A DNA stretch of 14,487 bases from an uncultured Oscillospiraceae bacterium (GTDB taxonomy: Bacteria; Bacillota; Clostridia; Oscillospirales; Oscillospiraceae). The notes below the pieces were generated by a model, which had not been told where the DNA came from, made no database searches, and worked only from the letters and a program-made list of their open reading frames with translations. The stretch spans positions 1 to 14,487 of the forward strand of contig CAYNMN010000049.1 in NCBI GenBank assembly GCA_964398305.1. Reading direction: 5' to 3'. This document shows, piece by piece, positions 3,246 to 14,487 of the stretch (position 1 is its first letter; each line of letters begins with the position of its first letter). The position numbers and the translations under genes are program-made.

Positions 3246-4528
3246 TTTATCTCACCGCGGCGCGAGAGCACGCTCCTTGCGTGACCCTCGAGCCCCTCGC
3301 GGCGGGCAAAGCGGACTATGTCGTCCGCCACGCTCGCGAGCGCTCCGGAGGAATAATATATGTAGCTTGAGCGCTTCACGAAATCGTCCACGCCGAGCGG
3401 CGATGAGAAGCGCGCCGTGCCGCCGGTGGGGAGAGTGTGGTTCGTGCCGGCGAAGTAGTCGCCGAGCGCCTCGGGGGCGCTGCGGCCGAGGAATATGCTG
3501 CCGGCGTTCACGACCTCGGGGAGATATTCAAAGGGCTCGTCCACGCAGAGCTCAAGGTGCTCCGGCGCGATGGCGTTGGAGATAGCCACGGCCTCGTGAA
3601 TGTCGCCCGTGACAATTATCCTGCCATAGTCGCGGAAGGCGGCGGTCGCAATCTCGCGTCTCGGAAGTATGGCGAGCTGGCGCTCGATCTCGGCGTCCAC
3701 CCTCCGGGCGAACGCGCTGTCGTCGCACACGAGCACGGGCACGGAGCGCTCGCCGTGCTCGGCCTGGGATATGAGGTCGGCGGCGACGCAGCCGGGGTCG
3801 GACTTCGCGTCGGCTATCACGAGGATCTCGCTCGGCCCGGCGATCATGTCGATGTCGACGGCGCCGAACACCTGCTTCTTCGCCACCGCGACGAAGATGT
3901 TGCCGGGGCCGACGATCTTATCGACGCCATTTACGCTCTCGGTGCCGTAGGCGAGGGCGCCTATCGCCTGCGCCCCGCCCATCTTATAGATGGTGTCTAT
4001 GCCGGCGACATGGGCGGCGGCAAGTATCTCGGGGCGGGCCCTGCCGTCCCTTCCGGGCGGCGTCGCCATCACAACGTCCGGCACGCCCGCGAGCTTCGCG
4101 GGGACGGCGTTCATCAGCAGGCTGCTGGGGTAGGCCGCGGTGCCGCCGGGGATATAGAGCCCCACGCGCGCGAGCGGCGTTATCTTCTGGCCGAGCACCA
4201 TGCCCTCCGCGCGGGTGTATTCAAAGCCCTCGCGCAGCTGGCGGCGGTGGAAGTCCTCTATGTTGTCCCTCGCTCTTTTGAGCGTGTCCATAAACTCCGT
4301 CGGCTCGCTCGCCACGGCCTCCGCTATCTCCTCCGCGGAGACAGACAGGGAGTCGGGGCGCGCGCCGTCAAAGCGCTCGGTATAGCGCGCCACGGCCTCG
4401 TCGCCGTTCTCGCGCACATCCGCGAGTATGGCGGCCACCGCCTTTTCCACCTTTTCGTCTGTCTGCTCCGCCGCGCGGGAAAAGAGCTTCACGGCGTCTG
4501 TGCCTCTCGCCTCGATAATCTGTGTCAT
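3242..4528 (-). CDS. hisD: Histidinol dehydrogenase HisD
   Basis: 428 aa with GPGNIFVAVAKK, AGPSEILVIAD, SQAEHG and NHTLPTGG motifs typical of HisD. It overlaps the hisZG stop by 4 nt. Confidence 0.9.
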   Translation of the reverse strand: MTQIIEARGTDAVKLFSRAAEQTDEKVEKAVAAILADVRENGDEAVARYTERFDGARPDSLSVSAEEIAEAVASEPTEFMDTLKRARDNIEDFHRRQLREGFEYTRAEGMVLGQKITPLARVGLYIPGGTAAYPSSLLMNAVPAKLAGVPDVVMATPPGRDGRARPEILAAAHVAGIDTIYKMGGAQAIGALAYGTESVNGVDKIVGPGNIFVAVAKKQVFGAVDIDMIAGPSEILVIADAKSDPGCVAADLISQAEHGERSVPVLVCDDSAFARRVDAEIERQLAILPRREIATAAFRDYGRIIVTGDIHEAVAISNAIAPEHLELCVDEPFEYLPEVVNAGSIFLGRSAPEALGDYFAGTNHTLPTGGTARFSSPLGVDDFVKRSSYIYYSSGALASVADDIVRFARREGLEGHARSVLSRRGEIK

Positions 4529-6084
4529 TTTCCTGCCTCCAGACGGGCGCGGATGTCCTCTATCCTCGCCGCTTTGAATTTACTGCTCGCCTTGTTGGCG
4601 ATGAGCCGCGCCGACACCGGCGCTATCTCCTCGAGCACGCACAGGTCGTTTTCCCGCAGCGTGCCGCCCGTTTCAACAATGTCCACGATGACGTCGGACA
4701 GGCCGATCACCGGCGCGATCTCAATGCTGCCGCTTAGACGGATGATGTCCGCAAGGCGGCTCTTGCTCTCAAGCCAGCGCGAGGCGGTGTTGGAGTATTT
4801 CGTCGCCACGCGCAGCGGCGCGTCGGGGTCGGGGCGGAGATCCGCCTTGCCGGCGCAGACCATGCGGCACTTGCCGATGCCGAGATCGAGCAGCTCATAG
4901 ACCTCCGGGCTGTGCTCGCGCAGCACGTCGCTGCCGGCGACGCCTATGTCCGCCGCGCCGCGCTCTACATATACCGGCACATCCGAGGGCTTGACGAGCA
5001 GATAACGCAGCTTCTTTCCCGGACAGTCGAACACGAGCGAGCGCGAGTTCTCCGTCAGCGCGGGACATTCGAAGCCGAGCCCGGCAAAAAGTCCGTAGGC
5101 CGCGCTGCCGAGACGCCCCTTCGGGAGCGCCACAGTGAGCATATCGTCGCCGCCGGAGGCCGCCTCGTTCCCCGTGAGTCCGCTCAGATATGCCGCAAAG
5201 CCGATAGCCGGCTGCGAGCGGCCCATGCGCCGCATGAGCCCGTCGTAGCGTCCGCCGGAGAGCACCGCGCTGGGCGCGGAGTCTATGTAGCCGTTGAAGA
5301 TCACGCCGTTGTAGTAGTCGAGCACGCCGCCCACCGAGAGGTCGAGCCGCAGATGCGAGTCCGCCTCGCCGCCGCCTATGGCCGCGTAAAGCGCTTCGAG
5401 CTCGCCTACGGCCGCGCGCAGCTCGTCCGTGCAGGCGAGCCTTCCCGCGGCGGCGAGAGTTTCGGGGAAGGGGCCGGAGAGTCGGCACAGCTCCATGAGA
5501 GCGTCGGCCTTTTCCCCGGCGATCTCCGCAAGCTCCGAGGGGCTCTTGCGCGAGAGCGCGTCGAGCGCCGCGCCGGCCGCCGCGTCGTCAAGCCCGACGT
5601 CACGCATCCACGCGGCGGCAAAGCCGACGTGCCCTACGTCCAGCAGGTAGTCGCCGCCCATCTCCGCAAGGCTCCGCAGAGCAAGGCGCAGCACCTCGGC
5701 CTCCCCCGCGCCGTCCTCGCCGCCGATATACTCCAGCCCCGCCTGGCGGATCTCGCGCAGCTCGCCGCTGCCCGGCTCCGTGCGGAACACATTTTCGCAG
5801 TAATAGAGCCGCCGAGCTCCGCCGCCGGGGGGAGTGTTCTTTATTATGCTCAGCGTGACGTCGGGCTTTAGCGCCATCAGCCGCCCGCGCGGGTCGGTGA
5901 AGGTAACTATGCCGTCGCTCTTCAGAAAGCTCCTGTTGCCGTAGTAGGTGTCGTAGGGCTCAAACCGGTCGCTGCTGTACTTTTCGTAGCCCGCCTTGGA
6001 ATAGAGCCTTCTCAGCCGGAGCGTCAGCCGCTCCGCGCCCGAGAGAAATCCGAGATCGTCCATTTGCTTCTCCGTTTTCTTCAT
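4525..6084 (-). CDS. hisZ-hisG: ATP phosphoribosyltransferase regulatory subunit HisZ (res. 1-314) in one continuous frame with short-form ATP phosphoribosyltransferase HisG (res. 315-519); apparent HisZ-HisG fusion
   Basis: Residues 1-314 look like a HisRS paralogue (GRLYYCENVFRTEPGSGELREIRQAGLEYIGG motif-2-like, GGRYDGLM motif-3-like). Residues 315-519 start MLTVALPKGRL at the internal ATG (plus-strand cat 5140-5142) and are short-form HisG (~205 aa). Reading across 5143-5165 shows no stop codon between the two parts (..EAASGGDDMLTVAL..). A likely alternative hisZ start is the ATG at 6063 (MDDLGF...), which has ACGGAG 8 nt upstream. Confidence 0.8.
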   Translation of the reverse strand: MKKTEKQMDDLGFLSGAERLTLRLRRLYSKAGYEKYSSDRFEPYDTYYGNRSFLKSDGIVTFTDPRGRLMALKPDVTLSIIKNTPPGGGARRLYYCENVFRTEPGSGELREIRQAGLEYIGGEDGAGEAEVLRLALRSLAEMGGDYLLDVGHVGFAAAWMRDVGLDDAAAGAALDALSRKSPSELAEIAGEKADALMELCRLSGPFPETLAAAGRLACTDELRAAVGELEALYAAIGGGEADSHLRLDLSVGGVLDYYNGVIFNGYIDSAPSAVLSGGRYDGLMRRMGRSQPAIGFAAYLSGLTGNEAASGGDDMLTVALPKGRLGSAAYGLFAGLGFECPALTENSRSLVFDCPGKKLRYLLVKPSDVPVYVERGAADIGVAGSDVLREHSPEVYELLDLGIGKCRMVCAGKADLRPDPDAPLRVATKYSNTASRWLESKSRLADIIRLSGSIEIAPVIGLSDVIVDIVETGGTLRENDLCVLEEIAPVSARLIANKASSKFKAARIEDIRARLEAGK

Positions 6085-6183: not shown

Positions 6184-6627
6184 CTATATTAGGCTCAAAA
6201 CGTACAGCACCAGCCCGTAAACAACACTCGCGCCTACGCCGTAGACGATCACGGGCCCGGCGATTACGAACATCTTCGCGGCCGTGCCGGTTATGAGCCC
6301 CTCCGTCTTGAACTCAAGGGCGGGGGAAACGACGGCGTTGGCGAAGCCGGTTATCGGCACGAGCGTACCGGCTCCGGCGAACTTCGCCGCGTCGTCATAT
6401 ACGCCCAGCCCCGTGAGCAGCGCGCCGAGGAAGATGAGCGACATCGAAGCCGCCGCGCCCGCATCCTTTTCGGAAAGGCCGAGCGCCGCGCCGCCCGACA
6501 GCAGCGCCTGCCCGGCGCAGCAGATGAGCCCGCCCACGAGAAAGGCGCGCAGCATATCGCCCCATATCGGGGAGGGCGGGGATCTTTCCGCGACGTATTT
6601 TGCGTATTGCTCCCTGGTCATTTTCAT
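6184..6627 (-). CDS. spoVAC: Stage V sporulation protein AC-like membrane protein (SpoVAC/SpoVAEB family)
   Basis: 147 aa. The N-terminus MKMTREQYAKYVAERSPPSP....LRAFLVGGLICCAGQAL matches the SpoVAC signature (..KAFLVGGLIC.IGQ). The remainder is Gly/Ala-rich and hydrophobic, consistent with a channel-like membrane protein. No spoVAD or spoVAE follows it. Confidence 0.6.
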   Translation of the reverse strand: MKMTREQYAKYVAERSPPSPIWGDMLRAFLVGGLICCAGQALLSGGAALGLSEKDAGAAASMSLIFLGALLTGLGVYDDAAKFAGAGTLVPITGFANAVVSPALEFKTEGLITGTAAKMFVIAGPVIVYGVGASVVYGLVLYVLSLI

Positions 6628-7415: not shown

Positions 7416-7520
7416 ATGTGCGGCGAGCTTGCGCGGCATCTGCCGAAGCTGCGGGAGATCATGAAGCTCTCGCAGGGGGAGCTTGCGGAGCTCTGCGGTA
7501 TTTCGCGCACGAGGATATGA
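7416..7520 (+). pseudogene. Truncated XRE-type helix-turn-helix gene fragment (34 codons)
   Basis: MCGELARHLPKLREIMKLSQGELAELCGISRTRI* contains the helix2-turn-helix3 pattern (LSQGELAELCGISRTRI) of XRE/Cro-C1 HTH domains but stops within the domain. It lies in a lower-GC decayed stretch. Confidence 0.35.
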
Positions 7521-7545
7521 CACGGACATCTTCACTGAACCAACA

Positions 7546-7938
7546 ATGAAGGGCAAACTTGGCGTAAATGCCATGAAAGCAGATCATCACCTATACGACC
7601 ATATTCTGTATGATTCCACCAACGAGCGGGATTTTGCAACAGAGCTTGATACGCGAACCGAGGTGGCAGTCTATGTAAAACTGCCGAACGGATTCTATAT
7701 CTCCACACCGGTTGGTAAATACAATCCTGACTGGGCAATTGCGTTCAAAGAAGGCAGTGTCAAGCATATCTATTTTGTCGCAGAGACAAAAGGCTCTATG
7801 AATTCTATGCAGCTTCGTATGGTTGAGGAGGCAAAAATACACTGTGCCAGGGAGCACTTCAAAGCCATTAGCTCTGACAGCATAGTGTATGATGTGGTGG
7901 ATAGTTACGAGAGTTTGTTGAACAGGGTTATGAGATAA
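7546..7938 (+). CDS. PD-(D/E)xK nuclease-domain fragment resembling the C-terminal endonuclease module of restriction-enzyme Res subunits; probable gene remnant
   Basis: The ~130-aa ORF starting MKGKLGVNAMKADHHLYDHILYD contains ...YNPDWAIAF...HIYFVAETKGS..., a classical PD...(D/E)xK arrangement. It is too short for a complete restriction enzyme, abuts the truncated HTH fragment, and sits in DNA with GC well below the window average. Confidence 0.4.
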   Translation: MKGKLGVNAMKADHHLYDHILYDSTNERDFATELDTRTEVAVYVKLPNGFYISTPVGKYNPDWAIAFKEGSVKHIYFVAETKGSMNSMQLRMVEEAKIHCAREHFKAISSDSIVYDVVDSYESLLNRVMR

Positions 7939-8193: not shown

Positions 8194-9183
8194 ATGCCGC
8201 TGCATTTTATACAATCGGATATCGTTGACGTCAGTGCCGACGCGATCGTGAGCTGCGGGAACAGCGCCATGACCGACGAGGGCGGGGTGAGCGGCTGCAT
8301 ATACCGGGCCGCGGGCAGCGCCGTTGCGGACGAGTGCGCGAGGATCGGCGGCTGTGCCCCGGGCGACGCGGTGGCGACCTCCGCCGGAGAGCTCAAGGCA
8401 AGGTATATCATCCACACCGTTGGCCCGATCTGGGACGGCGGGCGCTCAGGCGAGGAGTTCGTCCTGCGTCAGTGCTATAAGCGCGTCCTCGCCAAGGCCG
8501 CGGAGCTCGGCTGTGCCTCCGTCGCCATGCCGCTCATCGCCTCCGGGCGGTACGGGTATCCCCGGGAGCTCGCAAAGCGCGTCGCCTCCGAGGAGATCAG
8601 CGCGTTCCTCGAAGCTCACGGCGACATGGAGATCACGATGGTGCTGAGCGGCGAGGCCGGGCATATCAGCCGCGTGAGGGCGTCCAACGCCGACCTGTCC
8701 ACGTTCATCGCGAGAAACTTTATAGAGCCCGCGAGTGCCGACGAGCATGAGCCGTACTACGACCGGGACAGGACACGGTTCAGCATCTCGCCGCCGGGCG
8801 CCGGGCTCTACAAGACGCTCGACGAGATGCTCGCCGCGCGCAGTAAGCCGTTCAGGGATATGCTCCGCGATCTCATGACCGAGGCGCAGGTGTCGGACGC
8901 CGAGCTGTACAACAAGGCGGGCGTCTCGCGCCAGACCTTCAACAAGATATGGAACCAGGCCGGCTACAAGCCGAGCAAGAACACCGCCCTGTCGCTTGCC
9001 ATCGGTTTGGAGCTCAACTACGACCAGACGCTCGACCTGCTCGGCACGCTGGGCTACACGCTCTCGCACAGCGTGCAGTTCGACATGATCGTGGAGTACT
9101 TCATAAGGCGCGGCTGCTACGATCTCTTCGACATCAACTATTCCCTCGACGATTACGGCGAGCCGCCGCTCGGCCTTGTATGA
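8194..9183 (+). CDS. Macro domain (MacroD/YmdB-type ADP-ribose binding/hydrolase) fused to a C-terminal XRE-family HTH DNA-binding domain
   Basis: The N-terminus carries SCGNSAMTDEGGVSGCIYRAAG (cf. MacroD N.AN..L.GGGV.GAIHRAAG), YIIHTVGPIWDGG and ASVAMPLIASGRYGYP (cf. SIAFPAISTGVYGYP). The C-terminus carries LRDLMTEAQVSDAELYNKAGVSRQTFNKIWN followed by KPSKNTALSLAIGLELNYDQTLDLLGTLGY, the five-helix XRE pattern. A rho-independent terminator follows the gene. Confidence 0.75.
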   Translation: MPLHFIQSDIVDVSADAIVSCGNSAMTDEGGVSGCIYRAAGSAVADECARIGGCAPGDAVATSAGELKARYIIHTVGPIWDGGRSGEEFVLRQCYKRVLAKAAELGCASVAMPLIASGRYGYPRELAKRVASEEISAFLEAHGDMEITMVLSGEAGHISRVRASNADLSTFIARNFIEPASADEHEPYYDRDRTRFSISPPGAGLYKTLDEMLAARSKPFRDMLRDLMTEAQVSDAELYNKAGVSRQTFNKIWNQAGYKPSKNTALSLAIGLELNYDQTLDLLGTLGYTLSHSVQFDMIVEYFIRRGCYDLFDINYSLDDYGEPPLGLV

Positions 9184-9218
9184 GGCTCTCCGCCCGCGCG
9201 TAAAATATAATAATGTAT

Positions 9219-9253
9219 CCCTCGATCGGTCAAACGGTCGGGGGATGTTTTTT
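9219..9253 (+). terminator. Rho-independent terminator of the macro-HTH gene
   Basis: ccctcgatcg-gtcaaa-cggtcggggg forms a 10-bp stem (two G-U pairs) with a 6-nt loop, followed by atg and tttttt (9248-9253). It sits 36 nt after the stop and directly abuts operator copy 1. Confidence 0.45.
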
Positions 9254-9270
9254 GTCAATCGCGGATTGAC
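9254..9270. promoter_or_regulatory. Dyad operator copy 1, GTCAATC-gcg-GATTGAC (7-3-7 inverted repeat), in the promoter region of the vWA gene
   Basis: Perfect 7-bp inverted arms with a 3-bp spacer. The right arm contains a -35-like TTGACC (9266-9271). A -10-like TATCCT lies 20 bp downstream. The vWA start codon is 83 nt downstream. Confidence 0.5.
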
Positions 9271-9352
9271 CACGGTGTGCAGGGAGTGAAGTATCCTATG
9301 ATCACAGCGGTAGAGCGCAGCTCCCGCAGCAATAAAAACGGAGGATGCTATT

Positions 9353-9994
9353 ATGAACGAAAACCTGACAGAGCTTGTGTTCATACTCGACCGCAGCGGA
9401 TCTATGTGCGGCATGGAGGAGGACACCATCGGCGGCTTCAACTCGATGCTCGACAAGCAGAAGAAGGAGCCGGGCGACGCGCTGGTCACCACGGTGCTCT
9501 TCGACAACGAGTACGAGACCCTGCACGACAGAGCGCCGCTGCAGTGCGTGAGAGCGATGACGGCGAACGACTACTCGGCGCGGGGCAGCACGGCGCTGCT
9601 CGACGCGGTCGGCAGAGCGATCTCCCTCATCCGGATCGCCCAGAAGCACACGCCGGAGGCCGAGCGCCCCGGCAAGACGGTCGTGGTCATCATCACGGAC
9701 GGCTATGAGAATTCGAGCCGCGAGTACAGCATCGAGCAGGTGCGCGAAATGATCTCAAAGCAGACCGGGTTGGGCTGGGAGTTCCTGTTCCTCGGCGCGA
9801 ACATGGACGCCGTGCAGGCCGCCGGCAGGATGAACATCCGCGCCGACAGAGCCGCGACCTACCGGCCCGACGGCGCCGGCACCCGCGCCAACTACGACGC
9901 CGTGGACATGGCCATCCGCTACTCCCGAGCCGGACGCCACTTCTCCGACGAGTGGAGGGCGCCGGTCGACGAGCGCAACAACAGGGACTATTAA
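9353..9994 (+). CDS. Small von Willebrand factor A (vWA) domain protein (213 aa)
   Basis: LVFILDRSGSM (MIDAS D-x-S-x-S), GSTALLDAVGRAI and VVVIITDGYEN motifs. GGAGGA lies 7 nt upstream of the ATG. Confidence 0.8.
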   Translation: MNENLTELVFILDRSGSMCGMEEDTIGGFNSMLDKQKKEPGDALVTTVLFDNEYETLHDRAPLQCVRAMTANDYSARGSTALLDAVGRAISLIRIAQKHTPEAERPGKTVVVIITDGYENSSREYSIEQVREMISKQTGLGWEFLFLGANMDAVQAAGRMNIRADRAATYRPDGAGTRANYDAVDMAIRYSRAGRHFSDEWRAPVDERNNRDY

Positions 9995-10000
9995 AACTCG

Positions 10001-10203
10001 GCGCCCGTTTGAGCTCAAGCAGCGCGAGCTCTGCGCCCTTAGGTTCCCTCGCGTATTCCCTGAACATAGTGAAGGGAATACGCTGAGGGACCTTAGGAGG
10101 CGGTGACGTATCGGCAAACACGGCGCCGGGAACATTCACCGAGCTTTGCACGTCGGTAGTATCCCGCCTGAGCTCAAGAAAAAAGTGTCAATCGCGGATT
10201 GAC
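10001..10203 (+). repeat. Structured intergenic repeat copy 1: long imperfect hairpin (10037-10097), AGGAGG, ~90 nt conserved tail, and dyad operator copy 2
   Basis: Begins 7 nt after the vWA stop. The hairpin is cccttaggttccctcgcgtattccct / loop gaacatagtga / agggaatacgctgagggaccttagg (~23 bp with two single-nucleotide bulges and a T-T mismatch). AGGAGG follows the 3' arm directly. It is ~90% identical to copy 2. A 10-bp direct repeat tgagctcaag occurs at 10009-10018 and 10169-10178. Confidence 0.7.
10187..10203. promoter_or_regulatory. Dyad operator copy 2, GTCAATC-gcg-GATTGAC, upstream of the 62-aa ORF
   Basis: Identical 17-mer. TTGACC is at 10199-10204 and a -10-like TACATT lies 20 bp downstream. 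The ORF start is at 10280. Confidence 0.5.
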
Positions 10204-10279
10204 CCGGGCGAGGGACGGATTTGGTACATTATGAATAGAAGCTGCAAAAACGACGGCTCGAAAGAAAGGGAGGACTGCT

Positions 10280-10468
10280 ATGGATGCTTACGGGAAAACG
10301 AAATTCAACACCTGCCTTGACGAATTCGAAAGAACACTGACCGACCTGCGCAGGTGCGGGTCGCTCACAGAGAAGGATCTCCGCATACTCTGCCGCCGGG
10401 TTGAGGAGATGCGCCGGGCCGGCAACGACAGCCCGGACATGACAGGTCGGAGCCGGCTGCGCCCGTGA
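10280..10468 (+). CDS. Small hypothetical protein (62 aa), predicted helical and charged
   Basis: Strong RBS AAAGGGAGG 7 nt upstream of the ATG. MDAYGKTKFNTCLDEFERTLTDLRRCGSLTEKDLRILCRRVEEMRRAGNDSPDMTGRSRLRP. It lies between the two repeat copies, and its stop codon overlaps the start of repeat copy 2. Confidence 0.5.
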   Translation: MDAYGKTKFNTCLDEFERTLTDLRRCGSLTEKDLRILCRRVEEMRRAGNDSPDMTGRSRLRP

Positions 10469-10648
10469 GCCTGCGCCCTTAGGTCCCCTCGCGTATTCCC
10501 TGAACATAGTGAAGGGAATACGCCGAGGGACCTTAGGAGGCGGTGCCGTGCCGACAAACAAGGCGCCGGGAACATTTACCGACCTCTGCACGTCGGTAGT
10601 ATTCCGTCCGCGATCCGAAACAAGAAAAAGTGTCAATCGCGGATTGAC
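10459..10648 (+). repeat. Structured intergenic repeat copy 2: hairpin 10477-10537, AGGAGG, conserved tail, and dyad operator copy 3
   Basis: Aligns to copy 1 with ~11 substitutions and two small indels over ~175 bp. The bulged base in the hairpin changes in both arms (t to c on the left, t to c on the right) but the predicted structure is preserved. Confidence 0.7.
10632..10648. promoter_or_regulatory. Dyad operator copy 3, GTCAATC-gcg-GATTGAC, at the head of a ~430-nt leader preceding the SPFH gene
   Basis: Identical 17-mer. TTGACC is at 10644-10649 and a -10-like TATGAT (5/6 to TATAAT) lies 20 bp downstream. The next plus-strand gene starts at 11115. Confidence 0.45.
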
Positions 10649-11114
10649 CATGACCGTAAACGGATACGGTATGATACGTTTATAAGGTGAGCTACGCGAA
10701 TCTTAGAAACAGAAGATGAGCTATTGCGAACCTTTTTAGCTGAGGCCAAGTAGCCGGTCCGTGGCGTCGATGAGTCGCCGGACCGCGTCGCCGGGAGCCA
10801 TAAACTCCGGCGTGCAGGCCAAGGCCAGGCAACCGGTAGGGTAGATGAAGTTTCCCGAGGCCGCATAAAGTCCGCCCGGACGCGTAAGACCCCTTGTCCG
10901 GAACGTGAAGTGAGCCTGCTGAGGACGGATACCGTCGGACAGTCCGAAAAGCCGGGACACAGTCCCCGCCGGAGGGTCAGCCGACTCAATTCCTTCGCCG
11001 CTCATCAGCGTGGACGCGGCCGACAAATAATCTCCGCTTGACGGCGCTCCGGCCGACAGCGGTACATATAGACCGACGACATTCGCTGCGGATAATGAAA
11101 GGAGTGCTGCACAC

Positions 11115-12275: not shown

Positions 12276-12305
12276 TTGACACACGAATTGTTCACACCGC
12301 ATAAT
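12276..12305 (+). promoter_or_regulatory. Sigma-A-like promoter for the ARH operon
   Basis: TTGACA (12276-12281), an 18-bp spacer, then CATAAT (12300-12305). GGGAGG is at 12313-12318 and the ATG at 12328. No copy of the GTCAATC dyad is present. Confidence 0.4.
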
Positions 12306-12327
12306 GGATAAAAGGGAGGCTGTGCAT

Positions 12328-13113
12328 ATGAAAGGCGCAATACTCGGAGACATAGTCGGCTCAGTCTATGAGCGACACAACACAAAGAGCAAGGCGTTTC
12401 CTCTGTTCTCGCCCGTGGGTCGCTTCACGGACGACACGGTGCTGACGTGCGCCGTGGCGAAGGCGTTAATGAGCGACGACGCCGACGTCGACCTTCTCGA
12501 AGAGCTGACCTACCGGCTGCAGCAGTTCGGGCTGCTCTACCCGCACGCGGGGTACGGCGGAGCCTTCAAGCGGTGGTTCCGCTCCGACTACCCGCAGCCG
12601 TACAACTCCTGGGGCAACGGCGCGCCTATGCGCTGCTCGCCGGCCGGCTTCGTTGCCGGCAGCGCGGAGAAGGCCTACGCGCTCGGCGAGGCCACGGCGG
12701 AGCCCACACACAACCACCCGGAGGGGCTTAAGGCCGCGGGGCTCACGGCGGAGCTCGTCTGGCGAGCCCGCCACGGCGAGAGCCGGGAGACTCTGCGCGA
12801 GAGGGCGTTTGAGCTCTATGAGCTGCCCGCGCTCGACGAGGTGCGCCCGACCTACCGCTTCCACGTCTCCAGTCAGGAGACAATGCCCGTCGCCCTCGCC
12901 GCGTTCTTCGAGAGCACGGACTTTGAGGACGCAATACGCAACGCGATCTCCGTCGGCGGAGACAGCGACACCATCGGCGCCATCACCGGCGCAATAGCCG
13001 AGGCGTACTACGGCGTGCCGGACGAGCTCTGGCGGAAGGCGACACTCTACCTCGACGACTACCTGCTGAAAATCGTTACCGAGTTCTATGCCTTCGCCGA
13101 GGCGCGGAGCTGA
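12328..13113 (+). CDS. ADP-ribosylglycohydrolase family protein (ARH/DraG-like), paralogue 1
   Basis: The start is taken at MKGAILGDIVGS (the track ORF begins 24 nt earlier, but GGGAGG sits 8 nt before this ATG and paralogue 2 starts at the same motif). ARH family motifs are present: FTDDTVLTCAVAKAL, GNGAPMRCSPAGF, THNHPEG and GGDSDTIGAITGAIAEAYYG. Confidence 0.8.
   Translation: MKGAILGDIVGSVYERHNTKSKAFPLFSPVGRFTDDTVLTCAVAKALMSDDADVDLLEELTYRLQQFGLLYPHAGYGGAFKRWFRSDYPQPYNSWGNGAPMRCSPAGFVAGSAEKAYALGEATAEPTHNHPEGLKAAGLTAELVWRARHGESRETLRERAFELYELPALDEVRPTYRFHVSSQETMPVALAAFFESTDFEDAIRNAISVGGDSDTIGAITGAIAEAYYGVPDELWRKATLYLDDYLLKIVTEFYAFAEARS
12653..13033 (+). repeat. 381-bp tract 100% identical to 13479-13859 (internal part of ARH paralogue 1); near-identity extends back to 12591
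   Basis: Direct base-by-base comparison at an offset of 826 bp. The tract 12591-13033 versus 13417-13859 shows only 3 mismatches, all within the first 62 bp. The flanking coding sequence on both sides is strongly diverged. Confidence 0.9.
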
Positions 13114-13150
13114 ACGGGTTCATTCAAACCGGACTATAAGGAGGGCAAAA

Positions 13151-13939
13151 ATGAAGGGTGCAATAATAGGCGACATCGTGGGCTCGATCTACGAGTTCGA
13201 CAATCTGCGTCAGAAGGACTTCCCGTTCTTCGGGAAGAAGTGCAAGTTCACCGACGACAGCGTGATGACCTGCGCTGTGGCCGAGGCGCTCATGAACGCA
13301 GACAGGACCGACGGCGACCTTTTCGAGGGGCTTGTTGAGAGCATGCAGGAGCTCGGCAACGCTTATCCGTACCGCGGGTATGGGCTGCGCTTCGGCGACT
13401 GGCTGGACTCCGACGACCCGCAGCCGTACAACTCCTGGGGCAACGGCGCGCCTATGCGCTGCTCACCGGCCGGGTTCATTGCCGGCAGCGCGGAGAAGGC
13501 CTACGCGCTCGGCGAGGCCACGGCGGAGCCCACACACAACCACCCGGAGGGGCTTAAGGCCGCGGGGCTCACGGCGGAGCTCGTCTGGCGAGCCCGCCAC
13601 GGCGAGAGCCGGGAGACTCTGCGCGAGAGGGCGTTTGAGCTCTATGAGCTGCCCGCGCTCGACGAGGTGCGCCCGACCTACCGCTTCCACGTCTCCAGTC
13701 AGGAGACAATGCCCGTCGCCCTCGCCGCGTTCTTCGAGAGCACGGACTTTGAGGACGCAATACGCAACGCGATCTCCGTCGGCGGAGACAGCGACACCAT
13801 CGGCGCCATCACCGGCGCAATAGCCGAGGCGTACTACGGCGTGCCGGACGAGCTCTGGCAGGAGGCGGCGCTCTACCTCGACGCCCGCCTGCTGAAAATA
13901 GTCAGCGACTTCTACGCCTTCGCCGAGACGAAGGCGTAA
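13151..13939 (+). CDS. ADP-ribosylglycohydrolase family protein (ARH/DraG-like), paralogue 2
   Basis: The start is taken at MKGAIIGDIVGS, with AAGGAGG 6 nt upstream. The N-terminal ~95 aa are about 50% identical to paralogue 1, the middle ~145 aa are identical, and the last ~25 aa diverge again. It lies 37 nt after paralogue 1. Confidence 0.8.
   Translation: MKGAIIGDIVGSIYEFDNLRQKDFPFFGKKCKFTDDSVMTCAVAEALMNADRTDGDLFEGLVESMQELGNAYPYRGYGLRFGDWLDSDDPQPYNSWGNGAPMRCSPAGFIAGSAEKAYALGEATAEPTHNHPEGLKAAGLTAELVWRARHGESRETLRERAFELYELPALDEVRPTYRFHVSSQETMPVALAAFFESTDFEDAIRNAISVGGDSDTIGAITGAIAEAYYGVPDELWQEAALYLDARLLKIVSDFYAFAETKA
13479..13859 (+). repeat. 381-bp tract 100% identical to 12653-13033 (internal part of ARH paralogue 2)
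   Basis: See the paired feature. The identical tracts also generate identical spurious antisense ORFs in the six-frame track (12743..12934 and 13569..13760). Confidence 0.9.
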
Positions 13940-13957
13940 GACAACAAAGGAGGCATT

Positions 13958-14347
13958 ATGGATCGGGATTCGTGTGCCATAGCAAAACAACGCTACATAG
14001 ACTTTTCGACTGAAGAGAATCGGAGGCTGTTTTTCGAAACGATCCGTTTGTGCGCGGAAGACAGGACCTGGATCCACTCCCGTGGGAGAGATGATTCCGG
14101 CCGGACTGCGTTGTGTGTTGTGATTACTGATGAAGGCGTGTTCGGAGCGCTTTTTACCTCTATCGAGAATGCGGTAAGGATACCAAGGCAGGTTCAGGAG
14201 CAGTATCCGGCTGTCATATGCTCGCCCATAAACCATGTGATAGACGCGGTAATGGAATATGGTCTTAAGGGGATTGTCTTTGACCCATACAGCGCGCAGC
14301 CTATCTTCATTGAAAGAAATAATTTGAAAGCAATACTCCAATACTAA
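13958..14347 (+). CDS. Hypothetical protein (129 aa), lower GC than its neighbours; a faint resemblance to small SseB/YbjN-like or immunity-type proteins is not demonstrable here
   Basis: AAAGGAGG 5 nt upstream of the ATG and only 18 nt after the ARH-2 stop, so it is likely co-transcribed. The sequence MDRDSCAIAKQRYIDFSTEENRRLFFETIRLCAEDRTW...GIVFDPYSAQPIFIE has mixed composition. GC is about 48% against about 66% for the ARH genes. Confidence 0.55.
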   Translation: MDRDSCAIAKQRYIDFSTEENRRLFFETIRLCAEDRTWIHSRGRDDSGRTALCVVITDEGVFGALFTSIENAVRIPRQVQEQYPAVICSPINHVIDAVMEYGLKGIVFDPYSAQPIFIERNNLKAILQY

Positions 14348-14487
14348 ACGTATTCCGGGTCAGCGAGGATTGTTTAGGGAAAACAAATCAGAGAGGAAGA
14401 GTGATAATTGGATAACGTTACAACATTGACCACAGCACTGATCGACAAGCTCAACGAGGATGTAAGAAACGGGCTTTACGAGCACGG

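Follow-up and report, generated by a model that had tools for sequence, protein, structure and literature searches.

Gene conversion and concerted evolution between bacterial paralogues are well known, the tufA and tufB genes of Salmonella being an example. Paralogue gene conversion has been surveyed across prokaryotes (PMC6053082) and described in Mycobacterium tuberculosis (PMC13061034 and PMC12046097). In this study we analysed a 14,487-nt contig of an uncultured Oscillospiraceae bacterium (CAYNMN010000049.1; this whole stretch is hereafter called the window), in which two tandem genes of the ADP-ribosylglycohydrolase (ARH) family, designated ARH1 and ARH2, form a recombination/gene-conversion mosaic. 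The locus is a new example of a well-known phenomenon. As in other cases of conversion between bacterial paralogues, an internal tract is far more similar within the genome than its flanks, silent sites are homogenised, the signal is incongruent along the gene, and the direct repeats lie less than 1 kb apart. The locus differs from the described cases of concerted evolution in that there is no other species with an ARH pair against which orthologues could be compared, and in that the strain-level resemblance at the locus is confounded by assembly.

The second process with which the locus must be compared is the collapse of bubbles in assembly graphs. To produce a consensus backbone, the metaSPAdes assembler masks differences, and the bulges that it collapses are larger than those handled by SPAdes (PMC5411777). 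The ARH locus resembles such collapse in that both copies show a single version wherever differences between them are enclosed by identical runs of k or more nucleotides, the choice of version varies among assemblies, one assembly (here called L088) resolves both, and k = 55 applies to one of the assemblies. It differs in that its main bubble (about 209 nt, with an expected coverage of 1:1) is at the upper end of simple bulge removal. At the protein level the closest described systems are DraG, ARH3 and Tri1, which share with ARH1 and ARH2 the PF03747 domain (E 1e-37) and the invariant T-D-D and D-x-D-T motifs. Unlike DraG and Tri1, however, ARH1 and ARH2 have a short form of about 260 aa and lack a nitrogenase or type VI context.

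Results

The base-by-base comparison of the two genes at an offset of 826 revealed an exact run of 381 bp, in which positions 12653-13033 equal 13479-13859, preceded by another exact run of 49 bp (12590-12638). Between 12591 and 13033 (443 bp) the first copy differs from the second only by three mismatches, located at 12639, 12648 and 12652, which correspond to positions 312, 321 and 325 of the ARH gene. The same lengths, offset and number of differences had been given in an earlier note on this DNA, made from the sequence alone, and they are exact. A repeat finder applied to the window recovered the same repeat family, and the similarity between the two genes was confined to the open reading frames (ORFs). 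The two copies of the whole tract are 99.3% identical in the window and 95.5% identical in L088; the 381-bp identity is a property of the assembled sequence, and the state of the organism's DNA is a separate question.

Outside the tract the two genes have diverged, as the note had stated for the N-terminal ~95 codons and the last ~25 codons. The protein identity between ARH1 and ARH2 is 55% for residues 1-87, 95% for residues 88-108, 99% for residues 109-235 and 62% for residues 236-261. The synonymous divergence (dS, Nei-Gojobori) is stratified in the same way: it is saturated at 1.3 in codons 1-87 (nonsynonymous divergence, dN, 0.43), drops to 0.15 in codons 88-108 and to 0 in codons 109-235 (0.08 in L088), and reaches 0.35 (dN 0.26) in codons 236-261. 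Accordingly, third positions differ in 44 of 87, 2 of 21 and 6 of 26 codons in the first, second and last segment, respectively, and in codons 109-235 in 0 of 127 in the window and 9 of 127 in L088. The tails thus represent an older stratum, being each other's closest relatives yet diverged.

The aligned genes differ at 125 of 783 sites. When these differences were permuted 2000 times, the longest identical run had a mean of 31 nt and a maximum of 76 nt, compared to 381 nt observed in the window; in L088 the longest run was 88 nt, compared to a permuted maximum of 65 nt. The two-breakpoint max-chi-square statistic was 189 in the window (permuted maximum 16) and 143 in L088 (permuted maximum 20). 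The observed values were reached in none of the 2000 permutations for the longest run and in none of the 200 for max-chi-square, either in the window or in L088, so that the breakpoint tests were significant for both, and chance is ruled out as the source of the tract identity. In addition, we compared the tract codons with ARH genes of five other species, where 55-91 of the 127 third positions differ (43-72%). Since none of the 127 differ between ARH1 and ARH2 in the window, protein conservation cannot explain the tract.

For the phylogenetic comparison, ARH1 and ARH2 were aligned with 118 homologues of 55-67% identity. In codons 1-87, 65 of the 118 homologues were closer to ARH1 than ARH2 is, and 80 were closer to ARH2 than ARH1 is. 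Bootstraps gave the paralogue as the nearest neighbour at a rate of 0.1-0.2% in this segment and of 100% in the tract, and in the tail none of the 118 homologues was closer than the paralogue. Judged from this alignment, the phylogenetic signal is incongruent along the gene, the N-terminal parts not being sisters and the tract and tail being sisters. The gene-conversion mosaic suggested in the note is upheld by the stratified dS, by breakpoint tests that are significant even in L088, by silent sites in the tract that vary between species, by the phylogenetic incongruence, and by the reality of both genes. The mosaic and its strata are directly visible in the sequences, and we infer conversion as the mechanism. 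Moreover, the mosaic holds whether the perfect identity is real or not, because the tract is at least 95.5% identical while its flanks are saturated; doubt is limited to the recency and perfection of the tract.

No second ARH gene was found within 6 kb in any of the 80 loci from GTDB species representatives, among which the species studied here is not included. A single copy is also present in the nearest relative (L089, 67% identity) and in L090. In the loci sampled (0 of 82 others) the tandem pair is therefore lineage-specific. A suspected tandem pair in a relative (P0018/P0025) turned out to be a coincidence; the P0025 contig (L090) has one ARH gene.

Table 1. Features of the ARH locus in the window.
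Feature	Position	Strand	Remarks
Promoter-like site TTGACA-18-CATAAT, upstream of ARH1	12276-12305	+	11 of 12 matches
ARH1, 261-aa ADP-ribosylglycohydrolase (PF03747)	12328-13113	+	ribosome-binding site (RBS) AAAGGGAGG at 12311-12319
Diverged N-terminal part of ARH1, codons 1-87	12328-12588	+	55% protein identity; dS ~1.3; contains T-D-D
Homogenised tract, copy 1 (444 bp)	12590-13033	+	exact run 12653-13033
X/Y block in copy 1	12729-12882	+	X in the window; Y in L003-L006
ARH1 tail, codons 236-261	13034-13110	+	62% protein identity; dS 0.35; dN 0.26
ARH2, 262-aa ADP-ribosylglycohydrolase (PF03747)	13151-13939	+	RBS TAAGGAGGG at 13138-13146
Diverged N-terminal part of ARH2, codons 1-88	13151-13414	+	one codon longer than in ARH1
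Homogenised tract, copy 2	13416-13859	+	exact run 13479-13859
X/Y block in copy 2	13555-13708	+	X in the window; Y in L088 and L003-L006
Gene site 618, copy 2	13771	+	single-site bubble 63 nt from the X/Y block
ARH2 tail	13860-13936	+	L005 divergence begins within it

Positions are those of the window. Codon numbers refer to the respective ARH gene. X and Y are the two versions of the tract described below.

The ATG at 12304, which the note had taken as the start of ARH1, falls within the -10 box of the promoter-like site upstream of this gene, and the real start is at 12328. Both this start and that of ARH2 are preceded by a strong Shine-Dalgarno sequence, and the 261-aa and 262-aa forms were also picked by independent gene callers. 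With these starts the two genes do not overlap. As only 37 nt separate the ARH1 stop from the ARH2 start, the genes probably form one operon. The PF03747 scores of ARH1 and ARH2 are 130.5 and 131.2 bits (gathering cut-off 26.2; E ~1e-37), and both proteins contain the GNGAPMR, THNHPEG and GGDSDT motifs as well as the binuclear-metal-site motifs, the N-terminal T-D-D and the C-terminal D-x-D-T. In an alignment of 121 ARH sequences including both proteins, residues T34, D35, D36, D214 and T215 do not vary, and the conservation of D212 is 90% or higher. The note had placed the catalytic core in the tract and ascribed a role in substrate recognition to the N-terminal region. This is half right: D214-T215 lies in the tract, but the invariant T34-D35-D36 sits in the diverged N-terminal part. 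Since all family-invariant residues are kept and the dN/dS of the N-terminal parts is 0.33, both ARH1 and ARH2 look functional, and as far as can be read from the DNA the locus contains two real, tandem and expressed-looking ADP-ribosylglycohydrolase genes.

The closest solved structure is that of DraG from Rhodospirillum rubrum (2woe, E 1e-14). However, ARH1 and ARH2 score only 62-64 bits against the DraG equivalog model (TIGR02662, cut-off 337) and 36-44 bits against the Tri1 equivalog model (NF041672, cut-off 490). Because these scores are far under both cut-offs, the two proteins are classed, on profile matches, as generic short enzymes of the ARH family, which is widespread among gut anaerobes.

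Seven further assemblies of the locus were found by exact-protein look-ups (L001 from JGI; L002/L087, L003, L004, L005, L006 and L088 from ENA), making eight together with the window. The note had asked whether related strains carry one or two copies, and both ARH genes are present on one contig in all seven assemblies that span the locus; L001 is a 1.4-kb contig that spans ARH1 and stops inside ARH2. The end of L001 lies 10 nt into the 49-nt run, which fits no plausible k, and it was rejected as the signature of a repeat break. Outside the tracts the flanks are 99.1-100% identical, with 0-3 scattered single-nucleotide polymorphisms (SNPs) per 4-10 kb and a few short diverged patches. Deletion or amplification between the repeats, for which the note had considered the locus a hotspot, has left no product in any assembly.

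Inside the tract, two versions designated X and Y differ at 16 sites within gene positions 402-555 (a 154-bp block), and 13 of these sites are concentrated in positions 529-555 (12856-12882), where they change RFHVSSQE into EFTESSQG. The window and L002 have X in both ARH1 and ARH2; L003, L004, L005 and L006 have Y in both. Only in L088 do the copies differ, ARH1 carrying X with 618G and ARH2 carrying Y with 618A. Site 618 is G in both copies of the window and A in both copies of L003; the A in both copies is private to L003. In consequence, L088 has 17 copy-to-copy differences inside the tract, where its longest exact runs are 76, 62 and 88 nt. In this X/Y state the two genes have no k-mers in common once k reaches 99, a length at which collapse would be impossible. 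L088 differs from L003 at 17 positions in 10,160 bp, every one of them in the ARH1 tract, while their flanks are identical over ~9.4 kb and share two markers absent from the remaining strains. With L088 thus showing 17 differences inside the tract in the strain background of L003, the recent conversion over a perfect 381-bp tract proposed in the note is not sustained. The window equals L088 except for the two flank markers and the ARH2 402-618 stretch, which bears ARH1 sequence; L003 equals L088 except for the ARH1 402-618 stretch, which bears ARH2 sequence. Likewise, L002 (X/X) and L006 (Y/Y) show no differences outside the tracts over 4.2 kb. The presence of the same version in both copies of all strains except L088 is equally expected from assembly collapse.

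An exact 32-mer scan of JGI metagenome contigs gave no match, though the JGI contig L001 carries the sequence. A protein search targeted at fragments found no partial ARH genes of this species, and the protein clusters contain only variants already known from the assemblies.

The patch of version X (12864-12880 and 13690-13706) forms a perfect 6-bp hairpin, GTCTCC-AGTCA-GGAGAC, and that of version Y an imperfect one, GAGTCC-AGTCA-GGGCAC. Four of the X/Y differences are arm changes that restore or swap hairpin pairs, which could be due to chance or could be the footprint of a template switch. A diversity-generating retroelement was rejected as the source of the two versions: the X/Y differences span all four bases in both directions with no adenine bias, and no reverse transcriptase domain was found among the ORFs of the window.

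Discussion

Our favoured explanation, which we hold with moderate confidence, is that ARH1 and ARH2 are old paralogues with a converted core of ~95.5% identity, and that the leftover differences within this core were collapsed by the assembler in the window. We thus infer that the perfect identity in the window stems from collapse instead of real recent conversion. According to this explanation, in the true genome the 154-bp block, including the 27-bp patch with its 13 differences, would be X in ARH1 and Y in ARH2. The 16-site block would constitute one bubble in a de Bruijn graph with k = 55, and site 618, located 63 nt further on, would constitute a second one. The assembler would collapse each bubble to one version and traverse the collapsed edge twice, which would give rise to a perfect 381-bp repeat, and the same would have happened in most other short-read metagenome assemblies of the locus.

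The variable sites are distributed as collapse predicts: they coincide with the bubbles expected at k = 55, and the block changes between assemblies as a whole. All 17 assembly-variable sites lie between identical stretches of 55 nt or more (76, 62 and 88 nt), and the block acts as one unit because the gaps within it are all shorter than 55 nt. Sites 312, 321 and 325, which lie behind the 49-nt run, are constant across the assemblies, as are sites 707, 715 and 717 and the differences beyond them. Among the ~125 other differences between the paralogues only site 709 varies, and it does so inside the divergent imported segment of L005. The 55-nt overlap across the 100-N gap of L002 identifies this scaffold as a SPAdes product made with k = 55. 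In addition, the persistence of a patch with 13 of 27 nt differing in an otherwise ~99% identical tract implies a stable X/Y state, which is hard to square with its loss, in both directions, in five of the six near-clonal strains that were assembled in full. Within the window, mis-assembly is most likely in the X/Y block of copy 2, which would have been overwritten with the ARH1 version. The note had mentioned an assembly artefact across a collapsed repeat as an alternative; this is the likelier cause of the perfection, given the k = 55 bubbles, but it does not extend to ARH2 itself, which is a real gene.

Several points weigh against collapse as the cause. It is deduced from the assembled sequences, and the assembler and k are documented for one of the assemblies, L002. 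Standard SPAdes bulge limits (~3k) would spare a bubble of ~209 nt at 1:1 coverage, so that the argument relies on aggressive metaSPAdes settings or on k = 21/33. L088 could be a chimera of X/X and Y/Y strains co-occurring in one sample. Short diverged patches that look real are also found in single-copy DNA (window 8702-8794; L004 and L005). Finally, PMC12046097 indicates that conversion between tandem repeats can equal point mutation in frequency, in which case identical flanks would be compatible with several real events.

The strongest alternative, in our opinion rather unlikely but to be taken seriously, is that the 381-bp identity is real and results from ongoing bidirectional conversion between the ARH genes in a polymorphic population. 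L088 would then represent the unconverted X/Y state, the window and L002 the products of ARH1-to-ARH2 conversion, and L003-L006 those of conversion in the opposite direction. The same version occupies both copies in all tract-spanning assemblies except L088, including the 618A of L003, as such conversion would produce, and the identical runs of 62-88 nt exceed the requirement of RecA. L005 demonstrates that assemblers were able to retain copy-specific differences near the tract, and patchy recombination is seen elsewhere in these strains. The suggestion in PMC12046097 that conversion is perhaps as common as point mutation in clonal bacteria is also in favour of real events. However, at least three independent events in both directions would be needed among strains that differ by 0-3 flank SNPs per 4-10 kb, and none of them crossed sites 312, 321 and 325, although, with left end-points placed at random in the 139-nt homology, roughly one event in two would have done so. 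Furthermore, the converted sites coincide exactly with the k = 55 bubbles, and frequent events are hard to reconcile with a lasting patch of 27 bp that is 48% diverged within the tract.

That X/X, Y/Y and X/Y are all real, with near-clonal gut Oscillospiraceae shuffling the RFHVSSQE/EFTESSQG patch, a short and strongly diverged surface patch in this reading, between the two ARH genes through frequent conversion in both directions, seems to us distinctly improbable. If it were true, the patch-shuffling conversion would outrun point mutation in the 10-kb flank and would be a case of conversion outpacing point mutation in a gut commensal. It would also mean a cassette-like re-assortment of specificity determinants, in which either patch could be joined to distinct N-terminal lobes, perhaps as part of an arms race against ADP-ribosylating toxins. 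Collapse and real conversion together leave a small remainder of probability, which falls to L088 as a two-strain chimera and to other scenarios.

Regarding the origin of the pair, the first ~87 codons of ARH1 and ARH2 are as distant from each other as from homologues of other bacterial families, which may reflect ancient paralogues or a foreign origin of one copy or of one 5' third. Beyond this part, from codon ~88 up to the stop codon, ARH1 and ARH2 are mutual closest relatives. We propose that non-reciprocal homologous recombination, presumably gene conversion of the RecA type between the direct repeats at their spacing of 826 bp, homogenised this 3' region in two or more steps. The older event would have reached the stop codon (dS 0.35 now), and the younger one would have covered codons ~88-235. 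The donor copy could not be discerned, as identity in the N-terminal parts and in the tract showed no correlation across the 118 homologues, to which versions X and Y are equally close.

A different history, which we consider doubtful, is that a recent tandem duplication was followed by the replacement of the 5' third and 3' tail of one copy with foreign ARH DNA or, in a variant of this scenario, that a foreign ARH gene was inserted beside the resident one with the conserved core as the homology anchor. The absence of the tandem pair from all other sampled species, the lack of homology beyond the ORFs, and N-terminal parts whose mutual similarity does not exceed that to homologues of other families are in agreement with it, as is the import in L005, which begins inside ARH2 and replaces the downstream gene. 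Nevertheless, the tail, with a dS of 0.35, is not of the same age as the tract, with a dS of 0-0.08, so later homogenisation would still be required, and no donor lineage was found, nor is tract identity correlated with N-terminal identity. This scenario bears on the origin only and is compatible with the collapse of the remaining differences by the assembler.

It is scarcely credible that the identity reflects purifying selection on the catalytic core or that ARH2 is an assembly duplication of a single gene: the tract does encode the conserved motifs THNHPEG and GGDSDT, but selection is ruled out by the silent-site identity and the cross-species control, and duplication by the saturated silent divergence over 87 codons, the different tails, the separate RBSs, the unrelated intergenic DNA and the two-gene contigs in seven independent assemblies.

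Our results call for caution, as bubble collapse in short-read metagenome-assembled genomes can yield perfectly identical tracts between tandem paralogues. Taken at face value, such tracts are false evidence of very recent conversion and of strain-level "concerted evolution". In this case the problem was revealed without reads, by comparing independent assemblies of the same strain. At the same time, the locus offers a clean case of a conversion mosaic with distinct strata, in a pair of ADP-ribosylhydrolase genes that is lineage-specific and adjoins a macro-domain gene, and it could help to ask which parts of the enzyme set the choice of substrate.

Neighbourhood of the ARH genes

The region from 7.4 to 14.5 kb has a lower and more uneven GC content than the adjoining his operon. 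Its genes encode a type III restriction endonuclease domain, a Macro-plus-HTH (helix-turn-helix) protein, VWA and SPFH/Band-7 proteins, the two ARHs and an SseB-like protein. No known defence system was detected by PADLOC in the window save the stand-alone type III restriction endonuclease domain at 7483-7938. This ORF of 130-151 aa corresponds to the C-terminal endonuclease domain only (PF19778; residues 862-986 of 989 in the PADLOC REase_III model), has neither a helicase part nor a methylase nearby, and lies in a stretch of ~50% GC next to the his operon of ~67% GC.

In 6 of 81 other genomes, one of them that of the nearest relative, a Macro gene is located within 6 kb of the ARH homologue (loci L012, L015, L026, L044 and L089), and four loci also have a VWA gene; the corresponding genes of the window lie at 8194-9994. 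This co-occurrence hints at a recurrent Macro-VWA-ARH module that may reverse ADP-ribosylation. Four other assemblies cover positions 8702-8794, and the window is distinct from all of them at 16 sites within these 93 bp, the surrounding kilobases being identical. In the 329-aa protein these sites alter 10 amino acids of the linker (aa 170-201), which joins the Macro domain to the HTH-like C-terminal part, and the patch is due either to a short recombination import or to a chimeric assembly. Another diverged patch, private to L004, is found at ~6370-6475 of that assembly (3576-3676 of L088), with 11 differences in ~100 bp, in a 122-aa gene downstream of the window. Short highly diverged patches seem to be common in this species.

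Downstream of the ARH genes, L005 (9500-10486, compared with 13803-14487 of the window) diverges from all other strains starting inside the 3' end of ARH2, and a different 204-aa gene replaces the 129-aa SseB-like gene. The 100-N gap of L002 and its 55-nt overlap are located exactly at the junction of this divergence (window 13886-13940), which suggests that both downstream variants co-occur in the sample of L002.

Two direct copies of a non-coding element of ~185 nt (10023-10204 and 10464-10649) are ~88% identical and 441 nt apart, and each is located just downstream of a gene on the + strand. The element has stops in all frames and folds into a long hairpin plus a terminal GTCAATCGCGGATTGAC hairpin; relative to shuffled sequences, the two copies have z-scores of -6.1 and -7.2. 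It has no Rfam match, in line with an Rfam scan of the window that gave no matches, and its occurrence in the 89 loci fetched is limited to this position and to the same species. In the his operon, a HisZ-like (tRNA-synt_His) part and HisG are fused in one ORF of 519 aa (4525-6084, - strand), which is called as 512 aa in L003.

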